Source of the DNA: an uncultured Mycoplasmatota bacterium
GTDB taxonomy: Bacteria > Bacillota_I > Bacilli_A > RF39 > UBA660
NCBI GenBank assembly: GCA_946497925.1
Contig: CAMMMG010000001.1
Span: 6,192-70,191 of the forward strand
Direction of reading: 5' to 3'
DNA length: 64,000 nt
The position numbers and the translations under genes are program-made. Of this stretch, positions 25,552 through 57,692 are shown piece by piece; position 1 is the first letter of the stretch, and every line of letters begins with the position of its first letter. The notes under the pieces are model-generated. The model made no database searches. It was not told the origin of the DNA and was given only the letters and a program-made list of their open reading frames with translations.

Positions 25552-25562
25552 TAGAGGTTTGT

Positions 25563-27275: not shown

Positions 27276-27277
27276 AA

Positions 27278-28608: not shown

Positions 28609-28741
28609 TAGTTCATAATAGACTTTTATTGATGATAGTGTGCTTATTTATAATAGTGATTCTAGTGAATTAGAAATATTTGGTAATGTTTTAACTTTTG
28701 CTCCTAAAGATAAATGATTATGTTTGATATATGGAGGTTAA

Positions 28742-29167: not shown

Positions 29168-29216
29168 TAGTAGCAAAAAAGGGCTTTTTACATATTTTAA
29201 TGTAGAGGTGAATATT

Positions 29217-29263
29217 ATGAATGAGCGAATAGTGACAGGTGTTGTTGTAGATGCCGGTCATGG
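29217..29263 (+). pseudogene. N-terminal fragment (15 codons) of an interrupted N-acetylmuramoyl-L-alanine amidase (Amidase_3) gene
   Basis: RBS AGAGGTG precedes ATG AAT GAG CGA ATA GTG ACA GGT GTT GTT GTA GAT GCC GGT CAT GG, giving MNERIVTGVVVDAGHG. This is the canonical Amidase_3 start (VVIDAGHGG). The frame then runs into element DNA and stops after 8 codons. Confidence 0.85.
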
Positions 29264-29375
29264 AGGAATGGGAGTATCCCAAAAATAGGGAAATGACTAT
29301 GAATACTGATAAATACAAGTAAAAGAGATACTTTAGTGAGAAAAGTGTCTTTTTTAGTGATATAATAGCTTTTAG

Positions 29376-30038
29376 GTGAGAAGTATTGTGAAAGATGAAA
29401 ATAAATATAAAACAAAGAAAGAAATTGTTAAAGAATTTGATAATATATTTAATGCATATAAATATTATCTTTATAATGAGTATAAGATTACAGATACATT
29501 TAATTATAAAAATATTTTAATAACTAGCATTTTGAATAGAAGTTTGGCTTTAATAGAGGCTTATAAAAGACTATTGCCAAGTAATAATATAATGGTTTTA
29601 AATTCTTTGATTAGACTTCAATTAGATAATTGCATTTTTGTGTATGCAATGCATATGCTAGTTGATGCTGGTTATAATATAGATGATTTGGGCGAAAATA
29701 TTATACATAAAAATAGAAAATTAAGTTCTTATAAAATAGGAAAGCAAAAAATGACAGATTTTTATTTGATAAGCAAAATTGATGAAAAATATGGGAATAA
29801 AATAAAAGAAATGTATAATTTTTATTGTAGGTTTGTTCATTTTTCTGATAGTGCTTTGATTTCTTCTTCACAATTAGTTGGTAATAATGGCTTATCAATT
29901 GGCATTACTAAAGACTATACTAGGTTTAAAAAACATATTATTGTGAATGCCAATTCATTTGTTAATTTATGCAAATTTTTGTTGATTTTGATTAGAAAAG
30001 AGTGGAAAGATATACCGAATGGTAAAAATTTAGTTTAA
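29376..30038 (+). CDS. hypothetical protein (220 aa), first gene of element 1
   Basis: GTG start after an extended -10 element TGATATAAT. No recognisable motif. Confidence 0.5.
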   Translation: MRSIVKDENKYKTKKEIVKEFDNIFNAYKYYLYNEYKITDTFNYKNILITSILNRSLALIEAYKRLLPSNNIMVLNSLIRLQLDNCIFVYAMHMLVDAGYNIDDLGENIIHKNRKLSSYKIGKQKMTDFYLISKIDEKYGNKIKEMYNFYCRFVHFSDSALISSSQLVGNNGLSIGITKDYTRFKKHIIVNANSFVNLCKFLLILIRKEWKDIPNGKNLV

Positions 30039-30039
30039 T

Positions 30040-40900: not shown

Positions 40901-41386
40901 ATGCAATTAGATTGTACTTTTAGCATAACTCCAAGAATAGTATTAAGTGATAAGAACTTATCAAGTACAGAAAAATTACTTATGGGGCTTATCGTGTCAC
41001 TTGCCTTAAAAAATAACTATTGTTTTGCTAGTAATAAGTATTTTGCAGATAACCTAAATATATCAGTTAGAACAGTAACTCTTGCTTTATCTAAATTGAA
41101 ATTAGAGGAGTATATATTTGTTAGAACTGATAATGGAAGAAGAAAAATATATCTAAATAAGGAAAAGATACCAACAAAAACTTCTAATAGAGTAGCAGAA
41201 ACTTACGATGTATCTATAGAAAGTAATTGCTATCATAAAATAAATAATAATTATAAGAAAAATAATAATAAATATAAAAATAAAGAAATTATTCCTGTTT
41301 GGTTAGAACAGAAAGAAATGTGTAATAGTCTTAGTGCAACTAAAGAGGAAATAGAAGAAATGAATGAACTATTAAAAGATTTATAG
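40901..41386 (+). CDS. HTH-domain protein (161 aa) of ICE/IME type, paralog family of 43818
   Basis: LSSTEKLLMGLIVSLALKNNYCFASNKYFADNLNISVRTVTLALSKLKLEEYI is the same architecture as the 43818 ORF (LSLKAKGLLSIMLSLPDSWNYSTLGLASICIESRDTIRKILNELKANRYL). Confidence 0.55.
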   Translation: MQLDCTFSITPRIVLSDKNLSSTEKLLMGLIVSLALKNNYCFASNKYFADNLNISVRTVTLALSKLKLEEYIFVRTDNGRRKIYLNKEKIPTKTSNRVAETYDVSIESNCYHKINNNYKKNNNKYKNKEIIPVWLEQKEMCNSLSATKEEIEEMNELLKDL

Positions 41387-41448
41387 AAAGAGAGATGATT
41401 TAATGAGGAGGAATATTTTATAACTAATAATAAAAGGGGGTTAGATAA

Positions 41449-41592
41449 ATGGAGGTAAAATATAATATAAAATATAGGTTTAAATGTGATGCTAAAACGA
41501 ATGAAGAATTAAAAGATATATTTAATAAAAAATGGTTAAATATTATACTTATTTTAGAAAACAATAATACTTCTAGTTTAAATAGAGTTTAA
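41449..41592 (+). CDS. small ORF (47 aa) immediately upstream of the recombinase; candidate excisionase/RDF
   Basis: Strong RBS AAGGGGGT precedes the ATG. The product is MEVKYNIKYRFKCDAKTNEELKDIFNKKWLNIILILENNNTSSLNRV. It is not in the track because it is shorter than 60 aa. Confidence 0.3.
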   Translation: MEVKYNIKYRFKCDAKTNEELKDIFNKKWLNIILILENNNTSSLNRV

Positions 41593-41655
41593 AATGAGTT
41601 ATAATGTGTTTGTATTTAAAAGTGTTTGTAGTCATTCTTTAAAGAAATTGGAGGA

Positions 41656-43251
41656 ATGGCTATGATAGAAAAGGTAGGTGTATATTGTAGATTATCTGAT
41701 GAAGATAGGTTTAAAGCTAATAAGAATGATGATAGTGATAGCATTGTAAATCAAAAGAGTATGTGTATTAAATATGCTCTTAAGCAAGGCTGGGATGTTG
41801 TAGATATTTATTCTGATGATGATTTCTCTGGGGCAGGTACTTATAGACCTGAATTTGAAAGATTAATTAAAGATTGTGAAAGTGGTAGAATTAATTTAGT
41901 TTTATGTAAAACACAATCTAGGTTTTCAAGAGACATGGAGATAATAGAAAAATACTTACATAATAAGTTCATCGAATGGAATGTTAGATTTGTTAGTATT
42001 GTAGATAATGCTGATACTAATATTGAATCTAATAAGAAATCAAGACAAATTAATGGACTAATAAATGAGTGGTATTTGGATGACTTATCACAGAACATTA
42101 AGAAATCATTAAAGAATAAAAGAGAAGATGGCTTATTTATGGGTAGCTTTGCTCCTTATGGTTATATGAGAAGTAGTGAAGATAAACATAAGTTAGTTAT
42201 TGATCCTGTTGCTAGTAAAGTTGTAAAAGATATTTTTAAAATGTATGAGAATGGTTATGGATATTATAAGATAAGCGAATATTTAAATAATGCTAACGTC
42301 TTAACACCAGCTTTATATAAAAAGCAAAATGGTAGTAAGTATGTATCTGGGACTTGTGATTATGATAATGTACGTTGGACTAGTGATACAATTGCAAAAA
42401 TTCTTAGGAATGAAGTTTATATTGGCAATTTAGTACAAGGTAAAAAAACATCTTTAGGGTATAAAGTTCATAAGTTTAAAACTGTACCTAAAAAGGATTG
42501 GTGTCTAATTGAAAATGCTCATGAGGCTATTATTTCTAAAGATACTTGGGAAAAGGTCCAGAAAAGACTTGCTAGTCATGAATGTCCTGTTAAATCAGGA
42601 GAAATACATTTCTTAAGTAAAAAAGTGTATTGTCTTAATTGTAAAAAGGTATTTATGAGAAATGTTTATAATGTAAAGGATGGTAAAAGAGCATATTTAC
42701 AATGTAAGGGTGTTAGAAGATTACATAATTGTTGTAATAATAAAGCGATAAGGTTAGATGAGTTAGAAGAAGTCTTATTAAATGCTATTAATGATTTACT
42801 AGATAACTATTATGATAAAGAAAAGCTAGAAAATGAATATAACATCAGAGAATCTAAAAATACAAATGATGAAGGAATTCAGATACTAGAACAAGAAAAG
42901 GTTTTACTTAATAAGAAAATAGAAGAAGAGAAAATATATTATAGAAAACTTTATGAAGATAAGGCTAATCTTGTAATAACTGAAGATATGTTTAAGATGT
43001 TATCAAGTGATTATACTAAAGAAATAGAAGAAATGAATAGAAGAGTTTCTATAATAGATGAAGAAATAGAATCTTTAAAGAAAATAACTGAAAATAAGAA
43101 ACAAGCAAAAGATATTTTAAAGAAATATAAGCATATAAGTAAGTTAAATAAAGTAATAGTAGATGAATTTATTGATAAAGTTTATATAGGAGTTTATGAT
43201 AAAGAAACGAAATCAAGAGATATTGAAATAGAATGGAACTTTGAATTTTAG
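41656..43251 (+). CDS. large serine recombinase (element 1 integrase)
   Basis: The N-terminal resolvase domain VGVYCRLSDEDR contains the catalytic Ser. A recombinase domain and zinc-ribbon follow (CLNCKKV...LQCKG), then a coiled-coil C-terminus. The stop lies 40 nt before attR. Confidence 0.9.
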   Translation: MAMIEKVGVYCRLSDEDRFKANKNDDSDSIVNQKSMCIKYALKQGWDVVDIYSDDDFSGAGTYRPEFERLIKDCESGRINLVLCKTQSRFSRDMEIIEKYLHNKFIEWNVRFVSIVDNADTNIESNKKSRQINGLINEWYLDDLSQNIKKSLKNKREDGLFMGSFAPYGYMRSSEDKHKLVIDPVASKVVKDIFKMYENGYGYYKISEYLNNANVLTPALYKKQNGSKYVSGTCDYDNVRWTSDTIAKILRNEVYIGNLVQGKKTSLGYKVHKFKTVPKKDWCLIENAHEAIISKDTWEKVQKRLASHECPVKSGEIHFLSKKVYCLNCKKVFMRNVYNVKDGKRAYLQCKGVRRLHNCCNNKAIRLDELEEVLLNAINDLLDNYYDKEKLENEYNIRESKNTNDEGIQILEQEKVLLNKKIEEEKIYYRKLYEDKANLVITEDMFKMLSSDYTKEIEEMNRRVSIIDEEIESLKKITENKKQAKDILKKYKHISKLNKVIVDEFIDKVYIGVYDKETKSRDIEIEWNFEF

Positions 43252-43293
43252 AATAATATTTAATATTTGGGACTTTCTGCTTCCTTCACATGG

Positions 43294-43561
43294 TGGTGCT
43301 GATCCTGGTGCTGTTAGTGGTGGTTTACAAGAGAAAGACTTTACATTAGATGCATCTTTATATATGTATGAAAGGTTACAACAGTTAGGTATACCTGCTG
43401 TTTTAACAAGAGATTCTGATGAAAACTTAAGTAGAACGGAAAGACTTAGACGGGCTAATGAAGCTTTTGGTGGTAGTAGTAATGCTATACTTATATCAAA
43501 TCATATAAATGCTGGAGGACAGGACGCGTATTATGTGGTTAATTCTAGGCATAGTGTATAA
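43294..43561 (+). pseudogene. middle fragment of the interrupted Amidase_3 gene
   Basis: In frame: GGADPGAVSGGLQEKDFTLDASLYMYERLQQLGIPAVLTRDSDENLSRTERLRRANEAFGGSSNAILISNHINAGG, the central Amidase_3 block. The bacterial sequence ends at 43518 and the frame continues into element 2 to a stop at 43561. Confidence 0.85.
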
Positions 43562-43640
43562 CTTTAATAAGCTTCTTATTTTACTGGATATGATGGTATA
43601 ATAGATATATCAAATTACTTTAAAGGTGAGAGGTGAAAAA

Positions 43641-43703
43641 ATGTTATATATAACTGGTGATACTCATGGTGACTTTTACAGATTTTGTCATTTATGGATT
43701 TAA
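43641..43703 (+). pseudogene. remnant of a metallophosphoesterase gene (first 20 codons only)
   Basis: MLYITGDTHGDFYRFCHLWI then a stop. ITGDTHGD is the MPE motif I. No continuation in any frame. Confidence 0.5.
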
Positions 43704-43817
43704 TGATGTTAATTATAAACCTAATTGTCCTAAAGAATTATAAAAAGTTTAGTAGTTGCAGAGAGTCTGTTTTAAAGATAGGCTCTTTTATTATGGAAAA
43801 AGAAAGGATATGAGAAT

Positions 43818-44114
43818 ATGAAAATAAAAACAAATAGAGAAGAAGGATATATAGTTATGGGTAATTATCATTTAAAAGATAGAAAATTAAGCTTAAAAGC
43901 AAAGGGATTATTGTCAATAATGTTATCTTTACCAGATAGTTGGAATTATTCAACATTAGGGTTAGCCAGTATTTGTATTGAAAGCAGAGATACTATACGA
44001 AAAATATTGAATGAATTGAAAGCAAATAGATATTTAAAAATTATTGAAAATAGAGATAAAAATGGTAGATTTAATTGTGACTATATAATTTATGAAAAAC
44101 CATACGAAAATTAA
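43818..44114 (+). CDS. small HTH-domain protein (98 aa), same family as 40901
   Basis: See the 40901 ORF. Confidence 0.55.
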   Translation: MKIKTNREEGYIVMGNYHLKDRKLSLKAKGLLSIMLSLPDSWNYSTLGLASICIESRDTIRKILNELKANRYLKIIENRDKNGRFNCDYIIYEKPYEN

Positions 44115-44341
44115 TCCAGGTGATTATTACGGGTATATGGATTTCCGTATATGGTTTTTAAAACATAATAAATTATTTAAAATAATTATTAAAACAAATA
44201 GATAAAGTCGATAAAGAAAAAACTCAATAAAATTAGGGATTCAATTTATGTCGAATCATAGTAAATAATAAAGATTTATTGTATAATATTTATATAAGAA
44301 ATTTTAAGTATTACTTTATATAATTAGGAGGTGATCATGTA

Positions 44342-45313
44342 ATGTTTAATGAACTAGTTGATATTAAAGAAGAGAATTTATTACAGGCAAACAATGAAAT
44401 TTTATCTACTTTGCTTTTTGATAATACTACAAAAAAAAATATTATATGGGCTTCTGATAATTATGAAGGATATGGAGATGGATTTAGCTTTTCTCAAGAA
44501 ATAACAATTGATAAAATTACAGGTAAATATGATGGTGTAATAAAACCTCGTTCAAGAAAAACATCAAATGAGAAGTTGAAAAGAATTAAGGACAATGGAG
44601 AAGTTTTTACTCCATCATGGATATGTAATGAACAAAACAATCTAGTAGATGATGCGTGGTTTGGTAAAAAAAATGTATTTAATGTATCAGAACAAAAAAA
44701 ATGGATAGCTAACGAGTCAAAAATTGAATTTACAAAAGATAAAACATGGCAAGATTATGTAAAAAGTTTAAGATTAGAAATTTCTTGTGGAGAGGCTCCT
44801 TATCTCGTAAGTAGGTATGATACTGTTACGGGAAAAAGTATTAAAATCAGTGATAGAATTGGTTTATTAGATAGAAAATTGAGAGTGTTATCTGAAAATG
44901 TAGATTTAGAAAATGAATGGATAGATTGGTCAATTGTTGCTGTAAAAAGTATATATGGATATGATTTACAAGGCGATAATATTTTACTTGCAAGAGAAAA
45001 TATTTTATATACTTATATAGATTATTACAAAGATAAATTTAATAAAAAACCATCTCTTGATTTAATTAAGGAAATAGCCAAAATTATTAGTTGGAATATT
45101 TGGCAAATGGATGGTTTAAAATTCGTAATACCTAGAAGTTGTAAAAATGAAATAATTAAAGAATATACATTGTTCGGAGATATTGAAACAAAAACAGAAT
45201 GTACTGGGTGCAAAACGAACAATTATAAAGATCATAATGGCATTTACTGTAAAATAATGAATTGGGAAAAAAATAAAACCGTTAAATTTTATACATTAGT
45301 AAACAAAAAGTGA
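44342..45313 (+). CDS. methyltransferase-like protein carrying only the N-terminal gamma-class MTase motifs (X and a glycine-poor motif I); no catalytic motif IV
   Basis: GEVFTPSWICNEQNNLV fits the FTP motif X of Eco57I/PglX-type N6-MTases. RLEISCGEAPYLV aligns to motif I (LEPSCGxGxFL) with two of its three glycines replaced. No (N/D)PP(Y/F) is present. Confidence 0.5.
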   Translation: MFNELVDIKEENLLQANNEILSTLLFDNTTKKNIIWASDNYEGYGDGFSFSQEITIDKITGKYDGVIKPRSRKTSNEKLKRIKDNGEVFTPSWICNEQNNLVDDAWFGKKNVFNVSEQKKWIANESKIEFTKDKTWQDYVKSLRLEISCGEAPYLVSRYDTVTGKSIKISDRIGLLDRKLRVLSENVDLENEWIDWSIVAVKSIYGYDLQGDNILLARENILYTYIDYYKDKFNKKPSLDLIKEIAKIISWNIWQMDGLKFVIPRSCKNEIIKEYTLFGDIETKTECTGCKTNNYKDHNGIYCKIMNWEKNKTVKFYTLVNKK

Positions 45314-45323
45314 GGTGAGATAG

Positions 45324-48300
45324 ATGGAGAATAAAGAATTATTAGATAAAATAATTGTTGGAAGAGTAGAACCACATATTTATGCTTTTACAACAAATAC
45401 AATACCTAATTATTTGAAAGTAGGAGATACTTATAGACCTGTATCAGTAAGACTTAATGAATGGAAAGAAGTGTATCCTGAATTAAAAAAAGAGTATGAA
45501 AAGAAAGCGATGGTTGACGAAAATATTTTCTTTAGAGATTATGCAGTTCATCATTATTTAGAAAATGATTTAAATAAAGAGCGAATAAATCCTAATGACT
45601 TTTCTAATATATATGTTTCAAATGAATTTTTTAAGGAAACTTCTGTTATAGATGTGGAATCTGCGATAGAAGATATTCAAAAAAGTTATGAAGAAAACTT
45701 GATGAAGTATCAATATTACAATGCAAATAGTAGATTAAGAACAATCGAAAGATATGTTTCAACAGGCTATTGGAAACCAAGACCAAATCAACAAACTGTT
45801 ATTGATAAATTTGTAGAGGCATATAAAAAAGGTAGAAATAATTTGTTAATGTACGCTATTATGCGTTTTGGAAAGAGTTTTACATCAATGTGTTGTGCAT
45901 TAGAGATGGATGCAAATATAGTTGTCATCGTGTCGGCAAAAGCAGATGTTAAAGAAGAATGGAAAAAAACGGTTGAAAGTGCAGAAAATTTTAATGAATA
46001 TGATTTTTTAACAAGTGAAGATTTACTTGATGAAAATATAATTAAAAATAAAAGAAGAGAAAATAGAAGATTAGCAATATTTTTAACTCTTCAGGATTTA
46101 CAGGGGACTGAAATAAAAGAAAAACATAAAGAATTATTCAATAATCAGATAGATTTATTATTAATTGATGAAACTCATTTTGGTGTAAGAGCCGACAAAT
46201 ATGGTGCTGTGCTTAGAGCTGGATTCAAAGATGTTAATGAGACTAGGGAAGATGGATTTGTTGATTTTGAGGATGCTAATAATCAAGTAAAGGCTTTGAA
46301 TTCAAAAATAAGAATTCATTTATCTGGAACACCATATAGAATTCTAATGGGAAGTGAATTTTCACATGATGATATTATAGCATTTTGCCAATTTTCTGAC
46401 ATTGTAAGCGAGCAAGAGAAGTGGGATAATGAACACTTTAAAGATATCGAAAATGGTGTAATAAACGATGAAACGGGTAAACCTTATGAAGAGTGGGATA
46501 ATCCATATTTTGGATTTCCACAAATGATAAGATTTGCTTTTAATCCAAATGAATCTGTAAGGAGAAGGCTAGAAAAATTGAAAAATAATGGAAACTTTTA
46601 TGCATTTTCCGAGTTGCTTAGAACGAATTCAATTAGACAAAATTCAAATGGTGAACATAAAAAATTTATTTATGAAAGTGAAGTGTTAGATTTATTAGAA
46701 GTTATTGATGGTACTAAGGATGATGTAAATGTATTAGGTTTTTTGGATTATGATAAAATTAAAGAAGGGAAAATGTGTCGCCATATCGTAATGGTATTAC
46801 CTTATCGTGCTTCATGTGATGCTTTAGAAGAATTAATAAAAAATAATAGTGATAAATTTAAAAATTTAAATGAATATGAGATTATAAATATATCAGGTGT
46901 TGATAAGCCTAATTTATATAAAAATGTTAAAGATATAAAAAATAAAATTAAAGATTATGAAAAGGAAAATAAGAAAACCTTAACATTAACAGTCAATAGA
47001 ATGCTTACTGGTAGTACTGTGGAAGAATGGGACACGATGATATATTTAAAGGATACATCATCTCCACAAGAATATGATCAAGCAATTTTCAGGTTGCAGA
47101 ATCAATATGTCAAAGATTATTTATCTAGTAATGGGGATTTAATTAAATATAATAAGAAGCCGCAAACATTATTAGTTGATTTTGATCCAAATAGAATGTT
47201 TATAATGCAAGAAACAAAAGCTATGATATATAACGCAAATGTTGATAAATCTGGAAATAGTAAATTAGAAGAAAGAATTAGAAATGAGTTAAATATATCT
47301 CCAATAATTGTATTAAATAAAAACAAGATTCAGAAAATACAAGCCATTGATATTATGAATGCAATAAGTAACTATTCTAAAGACAGGGGAGTTTTTGAAG
47401 AAGCTGGTGATATCCCAGTGGATTTATCTCTTATTGCTGTTCCAGAAATATTTGAAGTTATTTCAAAACAAGGAGAATTTGGAACAAGACAAGGATTTAG
47501 AGTTAATAATACAGATACTGATAGTGATGATAATGATTCTTTTGACTTTGGAGAATTAAGCGAGACTTTATTTGATTATCCACAAGATACCGAGATTGAA
47601 AGTCAAACAGGAACGTCAAGCAATCAAAAAGAGAAGAATGATATAAAAAGTAATTTAACAAAACAATTTAGAACTTATTATGCTAGAATTTTGTTCTTTG
47701 CAATATTAACAAAAGATTCCGTATCGTCATTAGAAGATATAATTAATGTAATTAACCAAGGAGAAAATAAAAGAATTGCAAATCATTTAGGATTGAGCAA
47801 AGAAGTTTTGTTTTTGATTAATAAAGAGATAGATATATTCATTTTAAGACAGCTTGATTATAAGATTCAAAATATAAATAGTTTATCAAATGATGATTCA
47901 CTATCTGAGATTGAAAGAGCTACTATTGCTATTAATAAATTTGATAAACTATCTGACTCTGAAGTTATAACTCCACAAAATGTATGTAGAGATATGCTAG
48001 AAATGATAGGAAAAGATAAGATTGTTGATATTATTAATAATAAAGGTAATATTTTAGATATTGCAAGCAAAGAAGCAGAATTTATGTTATCATTAGTTAA
48101 TATTTTAAAAGAAAATAATGTTTCCAATGAAAGATATAAAAATAATCTATATTCAATTCCAACTTCAGGTGTTGCTTATGAATTTACCAGAAAGATATAC
48201 GAAATATTAGGATTAAATATAAGCAATATTTCCGAAAAATTTGATTCTTATGATTTATTAAATGTTAAAACAGATGATAATATAGATTATGAAAAAATTG

Positions 48301-49415
48301 TTAATTATATAACGCAAACACAAACGTTTTCAGATATAGAATTAGATGATAATTTATTTAGTAATATGAAAGGAGATGAAAGAATGCACTTTGATATTGT
48401 TGTTGGTAATCCTCCATATCAAGAAGCTGATGGTGGTGCAGGAGCGAGTGCTAGACCTATATACAATTATTTTGTAAATCTTTCTAAAAAATTAGATCCT
48501 AAATTTGTTTCACTAATTATACCTTCTCGTTGGTATGTTGGCGGGAAAGGATTAGATGAGTTTAGAAAAGATATGGTCAATGATATACATATAAAGGAAT
48601 TACATGATTGCTTAACACCCGATGATATTTTTCCAAATACTAATAATCGTGGTGGAATTTGCTATTGGTTATGGGACAAAAGTTATAATAATAAAGAAAA
48701 TTCTGTTAAAGTAATAACCCATTCCAATAATAAAGTAGTAGATGAAATGATTAGACCTTTGAAATTGTATGATGAAGATATATTTATTAGAGATAGCAGA
48801 GCAAAGACTATTTTAGATAAAATTGTAACAAAAGATTTTAAATCCTTTAGTGAGATAGTATCGTCAAGAAAACCGTTTGGACTTGATGGAAATTTTGCCA
48901 GAAGTAACAAAATAACAAATGAAAAAACAAAAGAAAATACTGTTATTTGCTATATTAAGGGTAAGAAAAAAGTATTTGTTAATTTAAAATCAATTTTATG
49001 TCATGGTGATTGGGTTGATAGTTGGAAAGTATTTATTCCTAGAGCAAATAATATTGGTACTGAATTAAATGATGATAATATGAATTCTTTTGTTGGTGAA
49101 CCAAATACAATATGTACTGAATCATATTTAGTTGTTGGAGCAGATTTATCATTAAATCAGGAAACATCTAAAAATTTAGCTAAATACTTGCAAACAAAAT
49201 TCTTGAGATATTTACATAGTTTATTAAAAAGTAGTCAAGATGCTACTTCTAAAACTTTTAGTTATGTACCAATAGAAGATTTTGGTGAAAATTCAAGCAT
49301 TGATTGGTCGAAATCAGTTTCTGAAATAGATATGCAATTATATGAAAAATACAGTCTTGAAAAAGAAGAAATAAATCATATTGAAGAAAAAATTAAGCCA
49401 ATGGAGCAATTATGA
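45324..49415 (+). CDS. 1363-aa multidomain protein: N-terminal T5orf172/GIY-YIG-like domain, SF2 (Res/SNF2-like) helicase, and C-terminal N6-adenine DNA methyltransferase-like domain plus a possible target-recognition region
   Basis: The N-terminus GRVEPHIYAFTTNTIPNYLKVGDTYRPVSVRLNEW resembles the T5orf172 module. Helicase motifs are RPNQQTVI (Q), AIMRFGKSFT (I), LLLIDETHFG (II, DExH), LSGTPYR (III), and V/VI-like LTGSTV and QAIFRLQN. The MTase has motif IV FDIVVGNPPYQEADGG preceded by a degenerate motif I, ILDIASKEAEF. Confidence 0.75.
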   Translation: MENKELLDKIIVGRVEPHIYAFTTNTIPNYLKVGDTYRPVSVRLNEWKEVYPELKKEYEKKAMVDENIFFRDYAVHHYLENDLNKERINPNDFSNIYVSNEFFKETSVIDVESAIEDIQKSYEENLMKYQYYNANSRLRTIERYVSTGYWKPRPNQQTVIDKFVEAYKKGRNNLLMYAIMRFGKSFTSMCCALEMDANIVVIVSAKADVKEEWKKTVESAENFNEYDFLTSEDLLDENIIKNKRRENRRLAIFLTLQDLQGTEIKEKHKELFNNQIDLLLIDETHFGVRADKYGAVLRAGFKDVNETREDGFVDFEDANNQVKALNSKIRIHLSGTPYRILMGSEFSHDDIIAFCQFSDIVSEQEKWDNEHFKDIENGVINDETGKPYEEWDNPYFGFPQMIRFAFNPNESVRRRLEKLKNNGNFYAFSELLRTNSIRQNSNGEHKKFIYESEVLDLLEVIDGTKDDVNVLGFLDYDKIKEGKMCRHIVMVLPYRASCDALEELIKNNSDKFKNLNEYEIINISGVDKPNLYKNVKDIKNKIKDYEKENKKTLTLTVNRMLTGSTVEEWDTMIYLKDTSSPQEYDQAIFRLQNQYVKDYLSSNGDLIKYNKKPQTLLVDFDPNRMFIMQETKAMIYNANVDKSGNSKLEERIRNELNISPIIVLNKNKIQKIQAIDIMNAISNYSKDRGVFEEAGDIPVDLSLIAVPEIFEVISKQGEFGTRQGFRVNNTDTDSDDNDSFDFGELSETLFDYPQDTEIESQTGTSSNQKEKNDIKSNLTKQFRTYYARILFFAILTKDSVSSLEDIINVINQGENKRIANHLGLSKEVLFLINKEIDIFILRQLDYKIQNINSLSNDDSLSEIERATIAINKFDKLSDSEVITPQNVCRDMLEMIGKDKIVDIINNKGNILDIASKEAEFMLSLVNILKENNVSNERYKNNLYSIPTSGVAYEFTRKIYEILGLNISNISEKFDSYDLLNVKTDDNIDYEKIVNYITQTQTFSDIELDDNLFSNMKGDERMHFDIVVGNPPYQEADGGAGASARPIYNYFVNLSKKLDPKFVSLIIPSRWYVGGKGLDEFRKDMVNDIHIKELHDCLTPDDIFPNTNNRGGICYWLWDKSYNNKENSVKVITHSNNKVVDEMIRPLKLYDEDIFIRDSRAKTILDKIVTKDFKSFSEIVSSRKPFGLDGNFARSNKITNEKTKENTVICYIKGKKKVFVNLKSILCHGDWVDSWKVFIPRANNIGTELNDDNMNSFVGEPNTICTESYLVVGADLSLNQETSKNLAKYLQTKFLRYLHSLLKSSQDATSKTFSYVPIEDFGENSSIDWSKSVSEIDMQLYEKYSLEKEEINHIEEKIKPMEQL

Positions 49416-50419
49416 ATAATGAAGTAGAATTAATTAATCTATATAAGAAATTGGAATCACTTCCTAAAATTAAAAAGTGTTTGTATCCAGACAAAGAACA
49501 TTGCAAAGGAAAAATCAAAAGAGCTCATACTATACAAAATAATAAAATTTTGATAAGTGTTTCTGATAATGGGAATCTAATTGCATTAAATGGCAAAACA
49601 ACTCTAGGATTTCAAGATTATGAAAAACAAGGAAGAGGAGTAGCAAGTACTTTTTGGGGATTTTGTGATTATCATGATACTGTTGTTTTTGAACCTATTG
49701 AAAATTATGATTATGATAAATCTTTAAAACAAACATTTTTATATACATACAGAACTTTTTCGTGGCATTATTATTTAAAAGAGATGCAATTAAATAAAAA
49801 TAATTATTTACAAGAGAAAATTCCTGTTAATATGGAAAGTAATGAGTATTTTTTAGGTACTTCGCTAGGAATTAGTGATAATAAAAAATTGAAAGAAAAA
49901 TTTGATAAAGCAATTTTGAGTAATAATTATGACATAATAAAATATTATGTTTGGGAAATTCCATTTAAAATAGAGTTTTGCTGTTGTGGTATGGTGCAAT
50001 TATTTAAAGATTTACGAGGAAATGATATTAATAATTACGAGGGTTTAGCAAATATTAATAAACCAATGAAAAATCTTTTTATAAATATATTTCCAGAAAA
50101 AAATAAATCATATTGCATTTTTTCATGGATGGTTGATGATTTTGAATACGAAAATTTTACTCTTCAATTTTCAAAATTGACTTTTAAAAACAAGATAAAT
50201 TATATGAATAATATGCTACCAAAGGAAACTGATAAAATTTTTATTAATCCAAAATTATGGAATAAATGGGGAAATGGTATTCAACAGTCATTTATTGAAT
50301 GGGCAAATGTCAGTATGTTGCTTAATGCAATGCAAGCAGAATCACATAAACGAATAAAATGGAAGTATTCGTTTGTTCCATGGAATTTATTTGATTGTTC
50401 TGAAAAATTAAAGAAGTAA
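49412..50419 (+). CDS. hypothetical protein (335 aa), translationally coupled (ATGA overlap) to the giant helicase-MTase gene
   Basis: Track ORF with a 4-nt overlap with the upstream stop. No recognisable motif. Cys/His-containing, including a CCCG stretch. Confidence 0.5.
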   Translation: MNNEVELINLYKKLESLPKIKKCLYPDKEHCKGKIKRAHTIQNNKILISVSDNGNLIALNGKTTLGFQDYEKQGRGVASTFWGFCDYHDTVVFEPIENYDYDKSLKQTFLYTYRTFSWHYYLKEMQLNKNNYLQEKIPVNMESNEYFLGTSLGISDNKKLKEKFDKAILSNNYDIIKYYVWEIPFKIEFCCCGMVQLFKDLRGNDINNYEGLANINKPMKNLFINIFPEKNKSYCIFSWMVDDFEYENFTLQFSKLTFKNKINYMNNMLPKETDKIFINPKLWNKWGNGIQQSFIEWANVSMLLNAMQAESHKRIKWKYSFVPWNLFDCSEKLKK

Positions 50420-50432
50420 GAGGTGAAGTTTT

Positions 50433-52937
50433 TTGAATCAAAAATGGTTATTATGTGATTTACATATGCATTCACAATATTCAAAAATAAATAAACCAGG
50501 TGATAAAAGTAGAGTAAAAGATATGGTAGCTAGTGAATTTGTTGATATACTTAATCAGTCAGGTGTTGAATTATTTAGTATAACTGATCATAATTATTTT
50601 TCTGATGTTTACTATGATGAAATCGATAAATATATTACCGATAATGATTTAAATATGAAAATTATAAATGGTGTTGAATTAGATGCATATGTTGAATTAA
50701 AAGATGGAACAAAGGATAGTATTCATATTTGTATATATTTTTCAGATAGTACTGATAGAAAAAAGCTTAATAAAGTAATTTATTCATTATACAGAGATAA
50801 CAACGATAATATGTTAGAACCTTTATTTATGGAAATAATAAATAAATTGACTGAACTCAATACAAAGTTTATCATAATTCCTCATGGAGATAAGCATAAG
50901 GGACTATTTAAAATAATTAAAAATTTAAATAGTGAAGATGCCGTTGATTTTTATAAGTATTCAATGTATAAAATATTTAATGCATTTGATGTGAGACCAG
51001 GATTTTATAGTGTAAGCGAATCATTTTGGGCTACAAATTTTTACGAAAAAACTAAGTCATTTGATAAAATTCTGTCAAATTATGATGATGATAAATTAGA
51101 AAATTTGAAGAGTAATATTTCAAATAAAATAAAGGATGATACTTACGAGTTAACGGAAGAAGAACTGGAGATATATAGATATATATTAGATTATGGAAGT
51201 TATTTTGCATATTTCACTTTTTCTGATTGGCATAATAAAGAAGATTACAAACCAGAAATAAATAATTTCGTATTTGGAACACTTGAATATGGCTTTGAAG
51301 CAGTAGAATTAGCAACATTAGATCCTAAATCGCGAATAGAACAATCTCATGATAAATATATTGCAATTCCTTCTACATTATTAAAAAAAGTTGAATTTAA
51401 AATAAAAGATGATAAGAAAGAAATTTATTTTTCCCCTGGATTAAATGCTATTGTTGGTAAAAGAGGCAGTGGTAAGTCACTATTATTATCTGTTATAAAA
51501 AATTTAGTAGAAAAAGACGCAGAAGATGGTGCATTAAATAAGTATAAAAAGTTAGAAATTTCAGATATTATTGGACAAAATCGCGATAATATTAACATTT
51601 CTTTAGGCAGTTTAAGTTCTGTAGCGTTCTTGAATCAAGATCAAATTAAAGAGATATTTGAAAATCCAGAAAACGCACAAGAAAATATATCTAAAAATTT
51701 TAAGGAAATTAAGAATTTAAATTTAAATGATTTGATAAATATATCTGATGTAGCTAGTAAACTTAAGCCATATAATAAAAATTATAAAAATCTAACATCG
51801 AATATTATTTCAATAAAGAAAATTGATGATTATAATTTAAGTGCATATGAAGAACTTGATAATGTTAATTTTAAAAAATATTTTAGTGATAGTATTAACT
51901 CTTTGAGACTTGCCATAAATGAATTAGAAAATTTGGGATTAGATAGTAGTAAATTAGAAATAGAACTTTCTAATTTATATAAATATCAAAAATATTATTT
52001 AAAAATGATTGAATTATACAATACAATTATTAATAAGAATAATGCAGTTATTAATGATATTAATTCAAAGAAATCAGCAAATGAGATAACAATAAAGCAG
52101 AATATAAATACTATAAATAGTACGATTAAAGAATTAAAAAATAATTTTACAATCCAATTAAACTATGAAAAATTAAAATTATTAATTAACAATTTTAGTT
52201 TTGACAATCCTCCTGTTGAAGTGTCGATTAAGGGTAAATATTTATTTGTAACATATTATGATATACCTACAAATATGAGAGATATAATATTAGATAAAAT
52301 TACAGATACAATTATTCGTTCAAAAGAATTCGGAGATATTGAAAATTATCTTTCGGGTGATAAGAATAAGCAATTGAAGTCGGGAAAGAAGAATCTTTCT
52401 GAAGAATTAGATAAATATATAAAGAGTGATACATTCAAATCAAAAAAAGAATTTTATGAAATAATAGATGCATCTATTGATTATAAGAAACAAATAAGTA
52501 GTATGAACGAATTAGAAGATTACTTAAAACAAAATAAAATAAGAAATTTAACGGACGCATCACCTGGTATGAAAAGTGTAGCGTATTTGGATATGTTGTT
52601 TGATTTAGATGAGACAATTCTGATTTTAGATCAACCAGAAGATAATATAGATAATGACTATATAAGTAAATATTTAGTTCCTAATATTAAGGGTAAAAAG
52701 AAGATTAAACAATTAATATTTGTAACTCATAATCCGTCTGTTGCTGTATATGGCGATTCATTTAACTATGTGTATGTAGAAAATAACAATAAAATAAATT
52801 ACACAAATTATTTAATAGAGAGAAAAGAAGATAAGGATAAGTTGATAAATATTTTAGAAGGTGGAAAGAATAGTTTCTCAAATAGAAATAAAAAATTTGG
52901 AAATGTATTAGGAGATGAAGAATATGGAAATTATTAA
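50433..52937 (+). CDS. fusion of an N-terminal PHP-domain metal-dependent phosphoesterase/nuclease with an ABC/AAA_21-type ATPase separated by a long coiled-coil/insert
   Basis: PHP motifs are LCDLHMHSQYS and ITDHNYFS. Walker A is SPGLNAIVGKRGSGKSLL (about residue 340). Walker B/D-loop is ILILDQPEDNIDNDY (about residue 735), then FVTHNP (H-loop-like). Confidence 0.7.
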   Translation: MNQKWLLCDLHMHSQYSKINKPGDKSRVKDMVASEFVDILNQSGVELFSITDHNYFSDVYYDEIDKYITDNDLNMKIINGVELDAYVELKDGTKDSIHICIYFSDSTDRKKLNKVIYSLYRDNNDNMLEPLFMEIINKLTELNTKFIIIPHGDKHKGLFKIIKNLNSEDAVDFYKYSMYKIFNAFDVRPGFYSVSESFWATNFYEKTKSFDKILSNYDDDKLENLKSNISNKIKDDTYELTEEELEIYRYILDYGSYFAYFTFSDWHNKEDYKPEINNFVFGTLEYGFEAVELATLDPKSRIEQSHDKYIAIPSTLLKKVEFKIKDDKKEIYFSPGLNAIVGKRGSGKSLLLSVIKNLVEKDAEDGALNKYKKLEISDIIGQNRDNINISLGSLSSVAFLNQDQIKEIFENPENAQENISKNFKEIKNLNLNDLINISDVASKLKPYNKNYKNLTSNIISIKKIDDYNLSAYEELDNVNFKKYFSDSINSLRLAINELENLGLDSSKLEIELSNLYKYQKYYLKMIELYNTIINKNNAVINDINSKKSANEITIKQNINTINSTIKELKNNFTIQLNYEKLKLLINNFSFDNPPVEVSIKGKYLFVTYYDIPTNMRDIILDKITDTIIRSKEFGDIENYLSGDKNKQLKSGKKNLSEELDKYIKSDTFKSKKEFYEIIDASIDYKKQISSMNELEDYLKQNKIRNLTDASPGMKSVAYLDMLFDLDETILILDQPEDNIDNDYISKYLVPNIKGKKKIKQLIFVTHNPSVAVYGDSFNYVYVENNNKINYTNYLIERKEDKDKLINILEGGKNSFSNRNKKFGNVLGDEEYGNY

Positions 52938-53199
52938 AAAGAATGAGGCTATACAATTAGTTGAAAATCAAAAAATTATTGAGGAATATAAGTTTGATAA
53001 TGAAATTAATTTTTCAAAATTAATGGAATATTTATTATCATTAAACTTATCTAAAAAAATCACATTAGACGATAAAGTCTCTAATAAAAAATTGGAAGAA
53101 GAAAATTTGTTAAAAATAATAACTAATATTATAAATGACTACAATAATAAAACAGAGGAATTAGAGACTTTTAAGAAGGAAATAGAGAATAAAGATTAA
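52915..53199 (+). CDS. small acidic/coiled-coil protein (94 aa), overlaps the end of the PHP-ATPase gene
   Basis: Track ORF with a 23-nt overlap with the upstream gene. Possible operon member. Confidence 0.4.
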   Translation: MKNMEIIKKNEAIQLVENQKIIEEYKFDNEINFSKLMEYLLSLNLSKKITLDDKVSNKKLEEENLLKIITNIINDYNNKTEELETFKKEIENKD

Positions 53200-53454
53200 T
53201 GATATATAATAAATAGCTGATAGATAAAAATGTAGATTGTGTCCGGTGACTGTCCTAATATTTTGTGTTAAAATGATAATATAGGAAAGTTGTAAGGGGA
53301 TAGCAATAATTTGTATTTTTGCAAATTATTTTTTCTTCCACATATCCTTATTTTATAACGAATTGTGAAGCATTTAATGGAAATTGTGCCATTGCAATTC
53401 CTATTATTTTGTGGTATTATGGTAATATAGGGTAATTATAAAAAGGGGCTATTT

Positions 53455-53479
53455 GAGAGATTTTTTATCTCTCTTTTTT
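53455..53479 (+). terminator. rho-independent terminator closing the element-2 operon
   Basis: Stem GAGAGAT / ATCTCTC followed by TTTTTT. Confidence 0.5.
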
Positions 53480-53727
53480 CATGCCCATTTTTATTTTTAT
53501 CAAAAGAAAGAGGGTGAGTTATATTTTTAAAAATTGATAATGAATTTTATAAAATAGTTGAAATATTAAATGAAATTTTGATTTAAAAACTCCTAAACTG
53601 TCGGAGACTATTAGTGGGTTTTAGGGATATTCTCTAACAAGCTAGATAGGTGTGTATACACCATGCTTGATATATTGTATTATACGGATATGTAACCTCA
53701 AAATAGGATTTAATTGTAACCTAAAAT

Positions 53728-54324
53728 GTGGTAGAAAATGAAAGGAGAAATATGGAGTTTAAATCAATGGAAAAGTGGCGCGTTTTACAGAAGTTTAATA
53801 TGAGTGAAAAGCAGTATAAGAGACTAGTGAAAAGATTAGAAAGAAGACATCCTAATGAAAGATGGATTGATGAACATTTTGCTCAGAATGGTGAAAGAGT
53901 AGTATATCTAAAATTGGAACTTGTAGAATGGATAGAAGAAGTTTATTTAAATAACAATCTATTTTATTTAGATGCTGAAATTGTTTTCTTTAAAAAACAA
54001 ATATTAAGATTAGAAGACGAGCTTAATTTTCCTCATAATGAATTTGAATATAAAGATATATCTTTATATGATTTAAGAAGTTATTTTAATAGAAGTAAAA
54101 ATGTTATTGGTGTTGCAGTTAATAGAATGGAAAAAAGAAATAATCAATTATTTAAGTATTTAAAAGATGGTAAAGTAATAATTTCTAAAGAAGGCGTTAA
54201 ATGGTTAAGTGAAAACTATTTCCGTAAAGATTATTTAAAAAAACTAGAATTTTACAAATTAGAACTTCAAAATGTTAAGCGAAAACGAAATAGATTAAAA
54301 GAATATAATATTTTCTATTACTAG
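53728..54324 (+). CDS. hypothetical basic protein (198 aa) of element 2
   Basis: RBS AAAGGAGAAATATG upstream. Lys/Arg-rich. Possibly a DNA-binding or regulatory protein. Confidence 0.45.
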   Translation: MVENERRNMEFKSMEKWRVLQKFNMSEKQYKRLVKRLERRHPNERWIDEHFAQNGERVVYLKLELVEWIEEVYLNNNLFYLDAEIVFFKKQILRLEDELNFPHNEFEYKDISLYDLRSYFNRSKNVIGVAVNRMEKRNNQLFKYLKDGKVIISKEGVKWLSENYFRKDYLKKLEFYKLELQNVKRKRNRLKEYNIFYY

Positions 54325-54574
54325 ATTAGTTTGAAATATAACTAATTTTTTTATGCTCTAATTTTGATAATAAAGTCTTATAGTCGTTCTTATTTCATAA
54401 AATAAAAGGAGAGGTGTAGATTAGTGAACATAACTGAAACTTTCGATAAAGATAAAAACTTGGTTGATTTAATAGAGGAGTACTTAAAATTGATGTTAGA
54501 AAATAGTAAGCAGTAAAAGTTTGTGGTATAATGATATTGCTTATTGAAGTTATGCACATTGGAAGGAGTAGTAA

Positions 54575-56200
54575 GTGTATAACAATATAATACAAGCACC
54601 AAGTTTTTATAGAGTAGGTTTATATATCAGATTATCAGAAAGTGATGAAGATAAAACTTATGAGTCAGAGAGTGAAAGTATAATCAATCAAAGAAATTTA
54701 TTAATGGATTATGTAAAAATGAGTGGATATACTTTGGTTGATGAATATGTAGATGATGGATTTACTGGAACTAACTTTGATAGACCTTCTTTTCAAAGAT
54801 TATTAAAAGATATTGAAAGTGGTCGAATCAATTGTGTAATCACGAAAGACTTATCAAGATTAGGTAGAGATTACATTCAATGTGGTTATTATGTAGAACA
54901 ATATTTTCCACAAAAGAAAATTAGATATATTTCTATACTAGATCAAGTTGATACATTTCTAGAAAGCGCTAATAATGACATTGCTCCATTTAAAGCTTTG
55001 TTTAATGATATGACTAGTAAAGATACTTCTAAGAAGATTCGTTCAATACTAAAAAATAAAAAAGAACAAGGTAAATTTATAGGTAGTAAACCTTGTTATG
55101 GATATATGAGAGATCCACTTGATAAAGGACATTTAATACCCGATCCAGAAGTTGCTCCCGTTGTTAAAAAGATATTTAAAATGGCTCATTCTGGAACTGG
55201 AGTAAGCGACATAGTATCATACTTAAATGATAATAAGATATTAAGTCCTAGTATGTATAAAAATACTAAATCATCTTCAAGACAAAAAGTGAACGTATGG
55301 ACAATATCCTCAGTAAATAAATTATTAAAAAATAGAATGTATACAGGGGATATGGTACAAAATGTTCAAACAAAATTAAGCTATAAATCTCAAAAGAAAG
55401 TTGCTTTAGAAAAAGAGTTTTGGATAATAGTAGAAAACACTCATGAACCTCTAGTTAGTAAGACAGTATTTGAAGCAATACAAAATGCTCCTGCAAGAGT
55501 AAGAACAACTCATTGTAATAGAGAAAAAAGATTATTAGAAAATCTACTTGTATGCAAAGAATGCGGCAATTCTTTAAGTGTTCTTTATAGAAAAAATAAA
55601 AACTATAAGGATGGAAAATATTGGAGTGTTAATTGCAATAAATATGCAAGAGATCCAAGAAGACATTTGTGTTATCCACATTTCTTTCCTTATGATAAAC
55701 TAGAAGAAAAAATAATGAGTGTTATTAAAACTACTTGTCAAAAATATTTAGATAGTTTAAATATCAAAGAGTTATCTGAAAGAGTATTACAAGATAGAAC
55801 AAAGGAAAAGAATGATAGGCAAAAGGAAAAGCAACAATTATTAAATGAGATTGATGAATTAAAAAGAAAATCTGATGCTTTATATGATGACAAATTTAAT
55901 GGGATAATAAGTGTTGGTACTTATACAAGAATCTCTACGCAAACTGAAAAACAAATATCAGCCTTAAATTATAGAATTTATGAAATAGATAATGAAGAAA
56001 ATCAGATTAAAGAAGATACAAAAGAAATAGCTAAACATGAAGAACAAATAAAATCACTTTTAAATTTAGATGAACCCAACAGAGAACTCATAAAAACTTT
56101 AGTAAAAAATATTTATATTGATAAAGATAGAAATATAGAAATTCAATACAGATTTAAGATGCTAGATGATATAAAAACTAATTATGAAGAAATAAATTAA
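54575..56200 (+). CDS. large serine recombinase (element 2 integrase)
   Basis: YRVGLYIRLSESDEDK is the resolvase catalytic domain. A recombinase domain, a zinc ribbon (CKECGNS...CNKYAR) and a coiled coil follow. It is about 40% identical to the element-1 recombinase. Confidence 0.9.
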   Translation: MYNNIIQAPSFYRVGLYIRLSESDEDKTYESESESIINQRNLLMDYVKMSGYTLVDEYVDDGFTGTNFDRPSFQRLLKDIESGRINCVITKDLSRLGRDYIQCGYYVEQYFPQKKIRYISILDQVDTFLESANNDIAPFKALFNDMTSKDTSKKIRSILKNKKEQGKFIGSKPCYGYMRDPLDKGHLIPDPEVAPVVKKIFKMAHSGTGVSDIVSYLNDNKILSPSMYKNTKSSSRQKVNVWTISSVNKLLKNRMYTGDMVQNVQTKLSYKSQKKVALEKEFWIIVENTHEPLVSKTVFEAIQNAPARVRTTHCNREKRLLENLLVCKECGNSLSVLYRKNKNYKDGKYWSVNCNKYARDPRRHLCYPHFFPYDKLEEKIMSVIKTTCQKYLDSLNIKELSERVLQDRTKEKNDRQKEKQQLLNEIDELKRKSDALYDDKFNGIISVGTYTRISTQTEKQISALNYRIYEIDNEENQIKEDTKEIAKHEEQIKSLLNLDEPNRELIKTLVKNIYIDKDRNIEIQYRFKMLDDIKTNYEEIN

Positions 56201-56332
56201 GTAATGAAAATAGGGTGGTAAAATTTGTTAATCACACAATCTCACCATCCCCTATACTATTTTTAGAAAAAATGAAAATGCAGTAAAATCAAGGAAAAAT
56301 GATAGCCTAATCACATAAAATCTTTCCGGAGG

Positions 56333-57692
56333 TGGAGAAGGTGCAGAAGTTATTTATGCTTTACGTAATAATTCTACTTTAGCTCAGTCTATCTTAGAAG
56401 AGATAGGTAGTGAAGGGCAAATTATGCGTAAGTATTATCAAAGAAGACTTCCTGAAGATCCATCTAAAGACTATTATTATATTATTAGAGAGACTGCTCC
56501 TATGCAATCATTACTTGTAGAATATGGATTTATTGATAATGCTAATGATAGGGTTAAGTTGCAAAATGATTTATTAAATTATGTAGAAGCAGTTGTTAGA
56601 GCGATTGCAGGGTATGCTGGTGTTCCTTATACTCCACCTGAAGGAAGTGGTACTAACTTTTATACTGTAGTTAAAGGTGATAGCCTTTGGAGTATAGCTC
56701 GTAAATTTGGTGTTACAGTACAGGCTTTGAGAGATGCTAATAACTTAAAAAGTGATACTCTTACTGTTGGTCAACTTCTTAGAATTCCTACTAGTGGTGG
56801 TACTGATAATGGAACTGGTGGTAATGTTACTTATACTGTGCAAAGAGGAGATAGTCTATGGAGTATTGCAAGTCGTTATGGAATAAGTGTTAATGATTTA
56901 AGACGTGCTAACAATTTAACTAGTGATACTCTTAGTATAGGACAAGTTTTAATTATTCCTGGTGTTGGTAATGGTAATGAGGGTAATGATAATATAACAG
57001 GACCTTCTACTACCTATACAGTACAAAGAGGAGATAGTTTATGGAGTATTGGTAATAGATTTGGTGTAACAGTTCAACAACTTAGGGATGCTAATAATTT
57101 AACAAGTGATGTTTTAAGTGTAGGACAAGTCTTAACTATTCCTGGTGTTAGTGGAGATGAAGATACTGGTGATAATAATGGAACAGTATTCTATTACACA
57201 GTAGAACGAGGAGATAGTCTTTGGAGTATAGCAAGACGTTTTGGTGTTACGGTACAAGAAATAAGAGATGCTAATGATTTAGTTAGTGATACTTTAAGTG
57301 TTGGACAATCTTTAATAATCCCTGGTCTTAGTGCAGATGAAGACTTAGAAGATGATAATAATAATGAAACTACTCCTTCTACTTATACTGTACAATCAGG
57401 TGACAGTCTATGGAGTATTGCTAATAAATTCGGTATTACTGTCAATGACTTAAAGAATGCTAATGGATTAACATCTAATCTTCTTTCTATAGGACAAGTA
57501 CTAATTATTCCTAATTCTAATACTAATAATCCAACTAATCCTAGTTATACAACCTACACAGTACAAAGAGGAGATAGTCTTTGGAGTATAGCTAATAACT
57601 TTGGTGTTACTGTTGATGCTATTAAGACGTTAAACAATTTGACATCTAATTTACTTTCTGTTGGTCAAGTATTACAAATACCTAATAATTGA
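56333..57692 (+). pseudogene. C-terminal part of the interrupted N-acetylmuramoyl-L-alanine amidase: end of the Amidase_3 domain plus six LysM repeats (track ORF 56424..57692 is the portion from an internal ATG)
   Basis: In frame from 56333: GGEGAEVIYALRNNSTLAQSILEEIGSEGQIMRKYYQRRLPEDPSKDYYYIIRETAPMQSLLVEYGFIDNANDRVKLQNDL. This is the Amidase_3 C-terminal block (vLrettmPAvLvElGFisN). Six YTVxxGDSLWSIAxxFGVTVxxLxxxNxL repeats follow, which are LysM. Confidence 0.85.

Follow-up and report, generated by a model that had tools for sequence, protein, structure and literature searches.

A short-form PHP-ATPase and its small acidic partner gene: a probable two-gene defence module carried by a serine-recombinase element

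Ppl, in which a PHP domain is joined to an ATPase, is described as an anti-phage defence encoded by a single gene (PMC11482910, PMC12904381). The Escherichia coli protein is reported, in a review (PMC12904381), to be a single-stranded DNA 3′–5′ exonuclease that needs free 3′-OH ends and that NTPs inhibit. For TrlF our literature searches returned unrelated acronyms only, and no publication on a PHP-ATPase system made up of two genes came to light. Here, we analysed a 64,000-nucleotide (nt) stretch of DNA from an uncultured Mycoplasmatota bacterium (contig CAMMMG010000001.1, positions 6,192 to 70,191; hereafter the window, whose own numbering is used throughout), which carries a PHP-ABC ATPase gene followed by a small gene for an acidic protein. 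We put at roughly 60% the probability that these two genes (50433–53199) form a self-contained nuclease-ATPase defence module, belonging to a short-form branch of the Ppl/TrlF superfamily and carried along by a serine-recombinase element of 12.8 kb.

The PHP-ATPase gene (50433–52937, + strand; identified from the list of open reading frames, ORFs, and the translation) encodes 834 amino acids (aa) plus a stop codon, and its TTG start is preceded, 7 nt ahead, by the ribosome-binding site (RBS) GAGGTG (50420–50425, +, read directly). The N-terminus agrees with the consensus MxQxWLLxDMHMHS of 41 homologs. With 159 homologs found, many of them at E = 0, the reading frame is a real gene under selection. 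In an alignment of 42 sequences with identity down to 46%, the PHP metal ligands H11 and H13 (H11-M-H13-S), D52/H53 (I-T-D52-H53-N), E82 and D265-x-H267 are invariant, as are the ABC motifs, namely Walker A (GKRGSGKS, residues 342–349, nt 51456–51479), the Q-loop Q402, the signature S710-x-G712, D733/E736 and D737/D740 of the Walker B/D-loop ILILDQPEDNID (residues 729–740), and the H-loop H766. Two further PHP ligands, H98 and H151, are kept in 32–33 of the 42 sequences and change in concert to Q/E within one subclade, nine sequences carrying Q and E in their place. Both the PHP active site and the full ABC-ATPase motif set are intact. All the motifs quoted in the preliminary description of this locus (HMHS, ITDHN, GKRGSGKS and the Walker B/D-loop) are present.

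The encoded protein is a PHP phosphoesterase fused N-terminally to an SMC/Rad50/RecN-like ABC head, which is itself interrupted by an arm of about 110 aa. Such a fusion of PHP with an SMC/RecF-type ATPase had been proposed beforehand, and it is borne out by the invariant motifs, by the heads that Foldseek matched and by a match of the N-terminus to RNase AM PHP domains. In the AlphaFold2 model (predicted local distance difference test, pLDDT, 81.5; predicted template modelling score 0.64), the metal-dependent PHP phosphoesterase domain occupies residues ~1–305 (50433–51347, +; delimited by invariant columns, AlphaFold2 and Foldseek), holds the ligands H11, H13, D52/H53, E82, H98, H151, D265 and H267, and contains a helical insertion at residues 193–257. 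The first 60 residues, in which the preliminary description placed the metal-ligand motifs, do carry the first of them, but the domain and several of its ligands extend well beyond. The N-terminal lobe of the ATPase head (residues ~317–470; 51381–51842, +) carries Walker A and Q402, is basic (isoelectric point, pI, 9.05) and was defined by AlphaFold2, by conservation and by borderline matches to AAA_23, ABC_tran and SMC_N, the only ones that Pfam returned for the protein. The C-terminal lobe (52560–52730, +), recognized by its invariance in the 42-sequence alignment, carries S710-P-G712-M-K, the Walker B/D-loop and H766. Between the lobes lies the arm (51864–52190, +; AlphaFold2 secondary structure assigned by DSSP, and sequence), built of long helices at residues 478–500, 506–544 and 549–586 that are modelled with a pLDDT of 85–94. 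The Walker motifs are about 390 residues apart, much as the preliminary description had it, but the coiled-coil insert of ~400 aa that it placed between them contracts to helices totalling ~110 aa, the other residues of the gap being strands and helices of the head. Nor is the gap particularly rich in Lys, Glu and Asn, as had been claimed: these make up 12.7, 7.4 and 12.7% of it, compared to 12.0, 7.2 and 10.7% of the whole protein, a content that we ascribe to the low G+C of the genome (25%, with a range of 23–32%).

When the model was compared with the PDB by Foldseek, the matches for the C-terminal ~500 residues were heads of SMC, cohesin, condensin, Rad50, RecN, AriA, JetC and retron-IA proteins, with the Rad50/SMC/RecN heads 5xns, 9bi4 and 4aby at the top. 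In having an ABC head that is divided by an arm of antiparallel helices, the protein resembles Rad50/SbcC–Mre11/SbcD and SMC proteins, and a DNA repair or recombination factor of the SbcCD/Mre11-Rad50 kind, processing ends or hairpins for the host or the element, would be in keeping with these top fold matches and with the Gene Ontology term 'double-strand break repair' that NCBI attaches to a TrlF family protein on a Lactiplantibacillus plantarum plasmid. However, the arm is short, at ~110 aa, and has neither zinc hook nor hinge (no CxxC hook was found at its apex, where residues 545–548 read SKKS), while the nuclease is a fused PHP domain instead of a separate Mre11-type phosphoesterase, and no gene for an SbcD/Mre11-type metallophosphoesterase adjoins the module in the window or at the homologous loci L001–L005. 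Moreover, the distribution of the PHP-ATPase is sporadic and tied to mobile elements, its neighbours are variable defence genes, and a conserved housekeeping locus was not seen, all of which makes a repair function highly improbable. The preliminary description had set against its own defence proposal the case of a housekeeping SbcC paralogue lacking any link to defence islands; what emerged is a Ppl/TrlF relative located within such an island.

Among the curated families, the protein scores best against the NCBIfam model of the TrlF family AAA-like ATPase (NF045780; E 4.3e-67), yet it reaches 227.6 bits against a cut-off of 350, where genuine TrlF representatives score 470–635 bits. The match falls into two stretches, the best of which runs collinear from residues 4–450 with model positions 4–455 of 944, and the protein is ~110 aa shorter than the model, the difference lying in the arm and the C-terminal half. 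Its domain order, with PHP at the N-terminus and an ABC/SMC-like ATPase at the C-terminus, is that of Ppl; the two are homologous in sequence along the ATPase half and a portion of PHP, and both live in defence islands. The profile search for Ppl membership, advised at the outset, revealed a remote homolog (NF042955; E 2.1e-25, in two partial stretches) that at 88.9 bits stays far below the cut-off of 1000 and is ~50–60 aa shorter than Ppl; the PADLOC Ppl model (PDLC02208) gave E 1.4e-20 and 71 bits, with its best stretch covering just residues 701–820. Of the remaining NCBIfam models, the Spaf_1101 family matched at E 6.4e-23, and CehA/McbA and RNase RNM produced weak PHP-type matches over residues 4–88. 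A profile search of 1.84 billion representatives recovered 4492 clusters at E ≤ 1e-10, in which ~22 full-length representatives of the protein's own clade score above 550 bits, followed by a fall from 573 to ~205 bits; the tier below is TrlF-like, some of its members surpassing the TrlF cut-off. Because both cut-offs are missed and the clade is set off in this search, we assign the PHP-ATPase to a separate short-form clade within the PHP-ABC-ATPase superfamily, related to both curated families, Ppl and TrlF, but outside them. The hosts of the clade, which also distinguish it from Ppl, are low-GC Bacillota, Tenericutes and Patescibacteria.

Unlike Ppl, described as a single-gene system, the window clade is always accompanied by a small partner. 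Its gene (52924–53199, +; defined by downstream homologs, gene calls and AlphaFold2) encodes 91 aa plus a stop codon, its first 14 nt lying within the ATPase gene. An automatic ORF call had placed the start at the ATG at 52915; however, since an AGGAG RBS (52910–52914, +, read directly) lies within the last ATPase codons, 9 nt before the ATG at 52924, and since homologs begin with MEI and public gene calls give 91 aa, the ATG at 52924 is almost certainly the start used and that at 52915 probably is not. The C-terminal tail of the ATPase (LGDEEYGNY, 52910–52937), conserved but disordered, is dual-coded and yields both the RBS and the ATG of the partner. A homologous ORF of 87–106 aa, starting 11–14 nt before the ATPase stop codon, is present in 35 of the 35 clade loci that were fetched, comprising L001–L026 (ATPase identity 45–93%), three IMG/VR viral contigs (L035–L037) and L063–L068, which are [Clostridium] innocuum-type contigs (L063 and L064) and further copies of the window element (L065–L068). 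Across 16 loci, the pairwise identities of partner and ATPase correlate with a Mantel r of 0.93 (p = 2e-4). The partner is thus translationally coupled to the PHP-ATPase, co-diverges with it and is invariant in the clade. It is this downstream gene, missed earlier, that is the constant companion of the PHP-ATPase, and not the helicase–methyltransferase for which genetic coupling had been proposed.

The partner family consists of 94 protein clusters, all unnamed; a 99% identical partner protein is recorded from Candidatus Faecimonas gallistercoris, and the host of the window is a low-GC member of the Bacilli. The partner matched nothing in Pfam, NCBIfam, PADLOC or PHROG, nor did a fold search of the PDB and BFVD return a match. 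The family is acidic (median pI 4.5, median net charge −9), and the AlphaFold2 model, with a pLDDT of 95, consists of three β-strands, a helix, a strand and then a 34-residue C-terminal helix. Derivation of the partner from a domain split off the longer TrlF/Ppl proteins was considered and rejected at the level of sequence, as its hidden Markov model finds nothing in 245 large relatives. In a sister clade of ~795-aa PHP-ATPases from environmental metagenomes, an acidic ORF of 94–123 aa stands directly downstream in 14 of 16 loci. Comparison of the two partner families by hhalign gave E 0.011 and a probability of 3.7%, with one weak hmmsearch match (L060, 9e-5), so that their homology, as far as the sequences go, is suggestive but not significant, and we treat them as positional analogues. 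The sister-clade ORFs (L040–L060) often end in D-[DL]-P-F or E-D-F, resembling the C-terminal tail of single-stranded DNA-binding protein (SSB), and in the window clade endings in -SDF or -ADF occur in the 106-aa versions only.

A pairing of ABC ATPase and second protein recalls the two-gene defence logic of PARIS, whose AriA is also the solved chain nearest in sequence to the PHP-ATPase (8v46, E 5e-6 in the profile search). However, AriA holds the TOPRIM effector AriB, whereas the window module has nuclease and ATPase in one polypeptide, next to an acidic partner of 91 aa; no AriB-type TOPRIM partner is present, the downstream protein having no match to TOPRIM or to any other family. OLD and Gabija GajA likewise differ in combining an ABC ATPase with a C-terminal TOPRIM, in place of the N-terminal PHP found here, and Pfam, NCBIfam and PADLOC detected no TOPRIM in the PHP-ATPase. 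As for the nuclease-type domain itself, Foldseek matched it to the PHP domains of RNase AM (7ug9, E 3.7e-5; 9etk, E 1.7e-4), so that RNase AM/YciV-type exonucleases offer the closest solved PHP fold and the same metal-ligand motifs, although these are stand-alone RNA-trimming enzymes without an ATPase.

The combination of a large nuclease with a small, acidic, translationally coupled protein could also be that of an addiction module, in which the PHP-ATPase would act as nuclease toxin and the partner as labile antitoxin, serving to stabilize the mobile element and not to sense phage. In favour of such a toxin–antitoxin-like arrangement, the pair is always on mobile DNA beside serine recombinases, integrases, IS110 or Transposase_mut, and TrlF relatives are common on plasmids (923 records). 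However, no known antitoxin fold or DNA-binding fold was found in the partner, and the enzyme is not inherently antitoxin-dependent, given that at none of the three plasmid TrlF genes checked does a small ORF overlap the 3′ end and that Ppl is described as a single-gene system. The boundary between addiction and defence by abortive infection is, moreover, not a clean one. We regard addiction as unlikely.

In other lineages, too, the PHP-ATPase sits in defence islands on mobile elements and not at a housekeeping locus. The 149 neighbouring ORFs include many methyltransferases, DpnII, TdeIII, Eco57I, ResIII and Mrr proteins, serine recombinases, integrases and IS110. A restriction or modification (RM) gene lies within a few genes directly upstream and on the same strand in at least 10 of ~18 lineages, and the restriction systems in this position are of types I, II (DpnII), IIS (AlwI), IIG, III and IV (Mrr, GmrSD). 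In 7 of the 10 loci checked, the nearest upstream neighbour belongs to an RM system or is a candidate defence gene in PADLOC, and upstream RM genes are found at additional loci, L063 and L064 among them. At these last two, [Clostridium] innocuum-type loci, an AlwI restriction endonuclease and a double D12 methyltransferase stand together with the PHP-ATPase and its partner beside Transposase_mut; at L063, Transposase_mut occurs on both sides of the block, in a composite-transposon-like manner, and downstream comes a type I RM system whose specificity-subunit genes (Methylase_S) are interspersed with an integrase.

Three genes directly precede the module in the window. The first, a 323-aa methyltransferase (44342–45313, +), matches PADLOC MTase_II at 4e-122; the second, a 1363-aa helicase–methyltransferase (45324–49415, +), fits PADLOC REase_MTase_IIG at 1506 bits and carries Pfam ResIII and Eco57I; the third, a 335-aa protein (49412–50419, +), matched nothing in Pfam, PADLOC, NCBIfam or PHROG and, from the contexts of its homologs, is a modular island gene. 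The five genes from the methyltransferase to the partner are co-oriented with gaps of 10, −4, 13 and −14 nt and, because they are so tightly packed, they probably form one transcript in the window element. This arrangement, shared by every copy of the element, together with the fact that Pfam identifies no separate nuclease domain in the helicase–methyltransferase, might suggest one integrated system comprising the methyltransferase, the helicase–methyltransferase and the 335-aa protein, with the PHP-ATPase as its nuclease or abortive arm. However, tblastn of the element genes against L001–L026 recovers the three upstream genes only where the PHP-ATPase is 93% identical (L006–L008), and the window gene order recurs at L065–L068, where it is 100% identical; the arrangement is hence confined to PHP-ATPases of 93–100% identity, that is, to the same element. 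All three genes are absent from 23 of the 23 fetched loci at 45–60% PHP-ATPase identity. In addition, the helicase–methyltransferase fits a full-length, REBASE-derived profile of Type IIG restriction-methyltransferases, and it occurs together with the methyltransferase, without a PHP-ATPase, on three plasmids, from B. cereus, Paenisporosarcina and S. equorum (helicase–methyltransferase identity 33–35%). An integrated system of this kind is therefore very unlikely.

Functional coupling of the PHP-ATPase to the helicase–methyltransferase was accordingly rejected, the reciprocal searches agreeing with the tblastn result, and with it goes the earlier view of the PHP-ATPase as the killing or abortive module of that enzyme; the weaker idea of a coupling to restriction survives in the varied RM genes upstream of the clade's other members. 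The module is independent of the adjacent helicase–methyltransferase. The two methyltransferase genes are an autonomous RM-like pair, and the combination of a small methyltransferase with a helicase–methyltransferase of ~1400 aa recurs as a unit of two genes on plasmids of Bacillota (L069–L071). On the Paenisporosarcina plasmid (L070, 10349–13420), a 1023-aa 'metallophosphoesterase' gene lies ~1 kb downstream of the pair, where the window has the PHP-ATPase. The 335-aa gene for its part pairs with other systems, its homologs (L030, L032 and L033) standing right after a DUF4238 gene, 14 nt before a Gabija-like pair and at a prophage end. That Gabija-like pair consists of an OLD-TOPRIM ATPase and a UvrD helicase, and the prophage-end homolog has a SEC-C motif. 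Both the helicase–methyltransferase pair and the 335-aa gene are thus met in places where the PHP-ATPase is lacking, and are missing from its distant lineages. Together with the PHP-ATPase and its partner, they make up three cassettes that can be separated, not one system.

The cassettes are carried by an integrative element of ~12.8 kb (43515–56330, +) inserted in an Amidase_3-LysM gene. Its left attachment site (attL) lies at ~43515–43520 and its right one (attR) at ~56325–56330, the two sharing GGAGG, and comparison with an intact homolog places the insertion junction at HINAGG|GEGAEV. The N-terminal Amidase_3 fragment remains at 43241–43561, and the C-terminal end, with six LysM repeats, at 56424–57692; a large serine recombinase that is part of the element (54575–56200) is encoded at its end. 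The identical element sits in many contigs from metagenomes, where its left flanks vary but an amidase fragment or LysM gene is always at the junctions, and it therefore has the look of an integrative element that is active and has amidase genes as its target. At L021 and L025, the 45%-identical PHP-ATPase pairs are likewise found with a related recombinase (52% identity). A prophage origin of the split amidase was rejected, since the upstream window genes (YfhO, arylsulfotransferase and RsgA) are chromosomal.

Upstream of the element, a second large serine recombinase (41656–43251, DUF4368) and an HTH_36 protein (40901–41386) form a further block (40901–43251) whose end reaches 11 nt into the beginning of the N-terminal amidase fragment, and a second element may have inserted in tandem at the amidase gene. 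Further mobile DNA is seen in the chromosomal stretch at 20751–31365, with a DUF1186/SEC-C protein, two PRiA4_ORF3-like proteins and a Mob_Pre relaxase. Over the ~58 kb from 4000 to 62000, the GC skew is strongly positive (0.2–0.5), nearly all genes are on the + strand and the G+C content is 23–32%. Downstream of the partner gene, a terminator-like hairpin followed by a T-run (53455–53473, +) is a possible end of the operon; it comes from a consensus scan only, which found two such sites in this region, where chance alone would give 1.8. A promoter scan was uninformative in this AT-rich DNA (112 sites versus 107 expected).

Under the reading that we favour, a self-contained two-gene defence module, ATP would cause the ATPase heads to dimerize and to engage DNA, probably at free ends. 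By analogy with E. coli Ppl, the DNA-engaged heads would then license the PHP domain to degrade nucleic acid exonucleolytically. The acidic partner would bind and gate the ATPase, either as an inhibitor that protects against self-damage or as the receiver of an infection signal; an inhibitory or switch role is favoured. It could be seated on the basic N-terminal lobe of the head or on the arm, since its acidic charge and long amphipathic helix fit these surfaces. As the module is often found directly downstream of varied restriction systems, restriction-made ends would be a plausible substrate, and the module would be an add-on that finishes cut invader DNA, not a subunit of one particular restriction enzyme.

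Several observations weigh against this interpretation. The defence role of the clade is one that we infer from remote homology and context only, and the role of the partner, including its interaction with the PHP-ATPase, is our inference throughout. Because the cut-offs of both Ppl and TrlF are missed, the biochemistry of Ppl may not transfer to the window protein, on which the Pfam PHP model is silent at E ≤ 0.01 while matching several of its homologs. The substrate could be RNA, given that the nearest solved PHP domains are those of RNase AM, an RNA exonuclease. Finally, at least four lineages (L001–L004, L014 and L016) have no upstream RM gene, and adjacency to RM genes may reflect mere clustering in defence islands.

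A broader generalization is possible but doubtful, namely that short-form PHP-ATPases with acidic partners of ~90–120 aa constitute an undescribed two-gene defence family that is deeply divided into a clade of gut Bacillota, Tenericutes and Patescibacteria and a clade of environmental metagenomes. In such a family, the partner, with its novel fold, might be the switch, gating the nuclease as a mimic of DNA or of the SSB tail, and cooperation with upstream restriction systems, mediated by DNA ends, might be generic.

Our analysis corrects the annotation of this region, where three cassettes share a single small integrative element. As a defence family, Ppl-type PHP-ATPases are validated but still thinly characterized, and the branch represented in the window is not a single-gene one. 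Its obligate acidic partner, with a confidently predicted fold that matches no other, offers a handle on how nuclease-ATPases are kept off self DNA. The position of the module downstream of type I, II, IIS, IIG, III and IV restriction genes suggests a synergy, in which restriction would make the ends that the exonuclease consumes.

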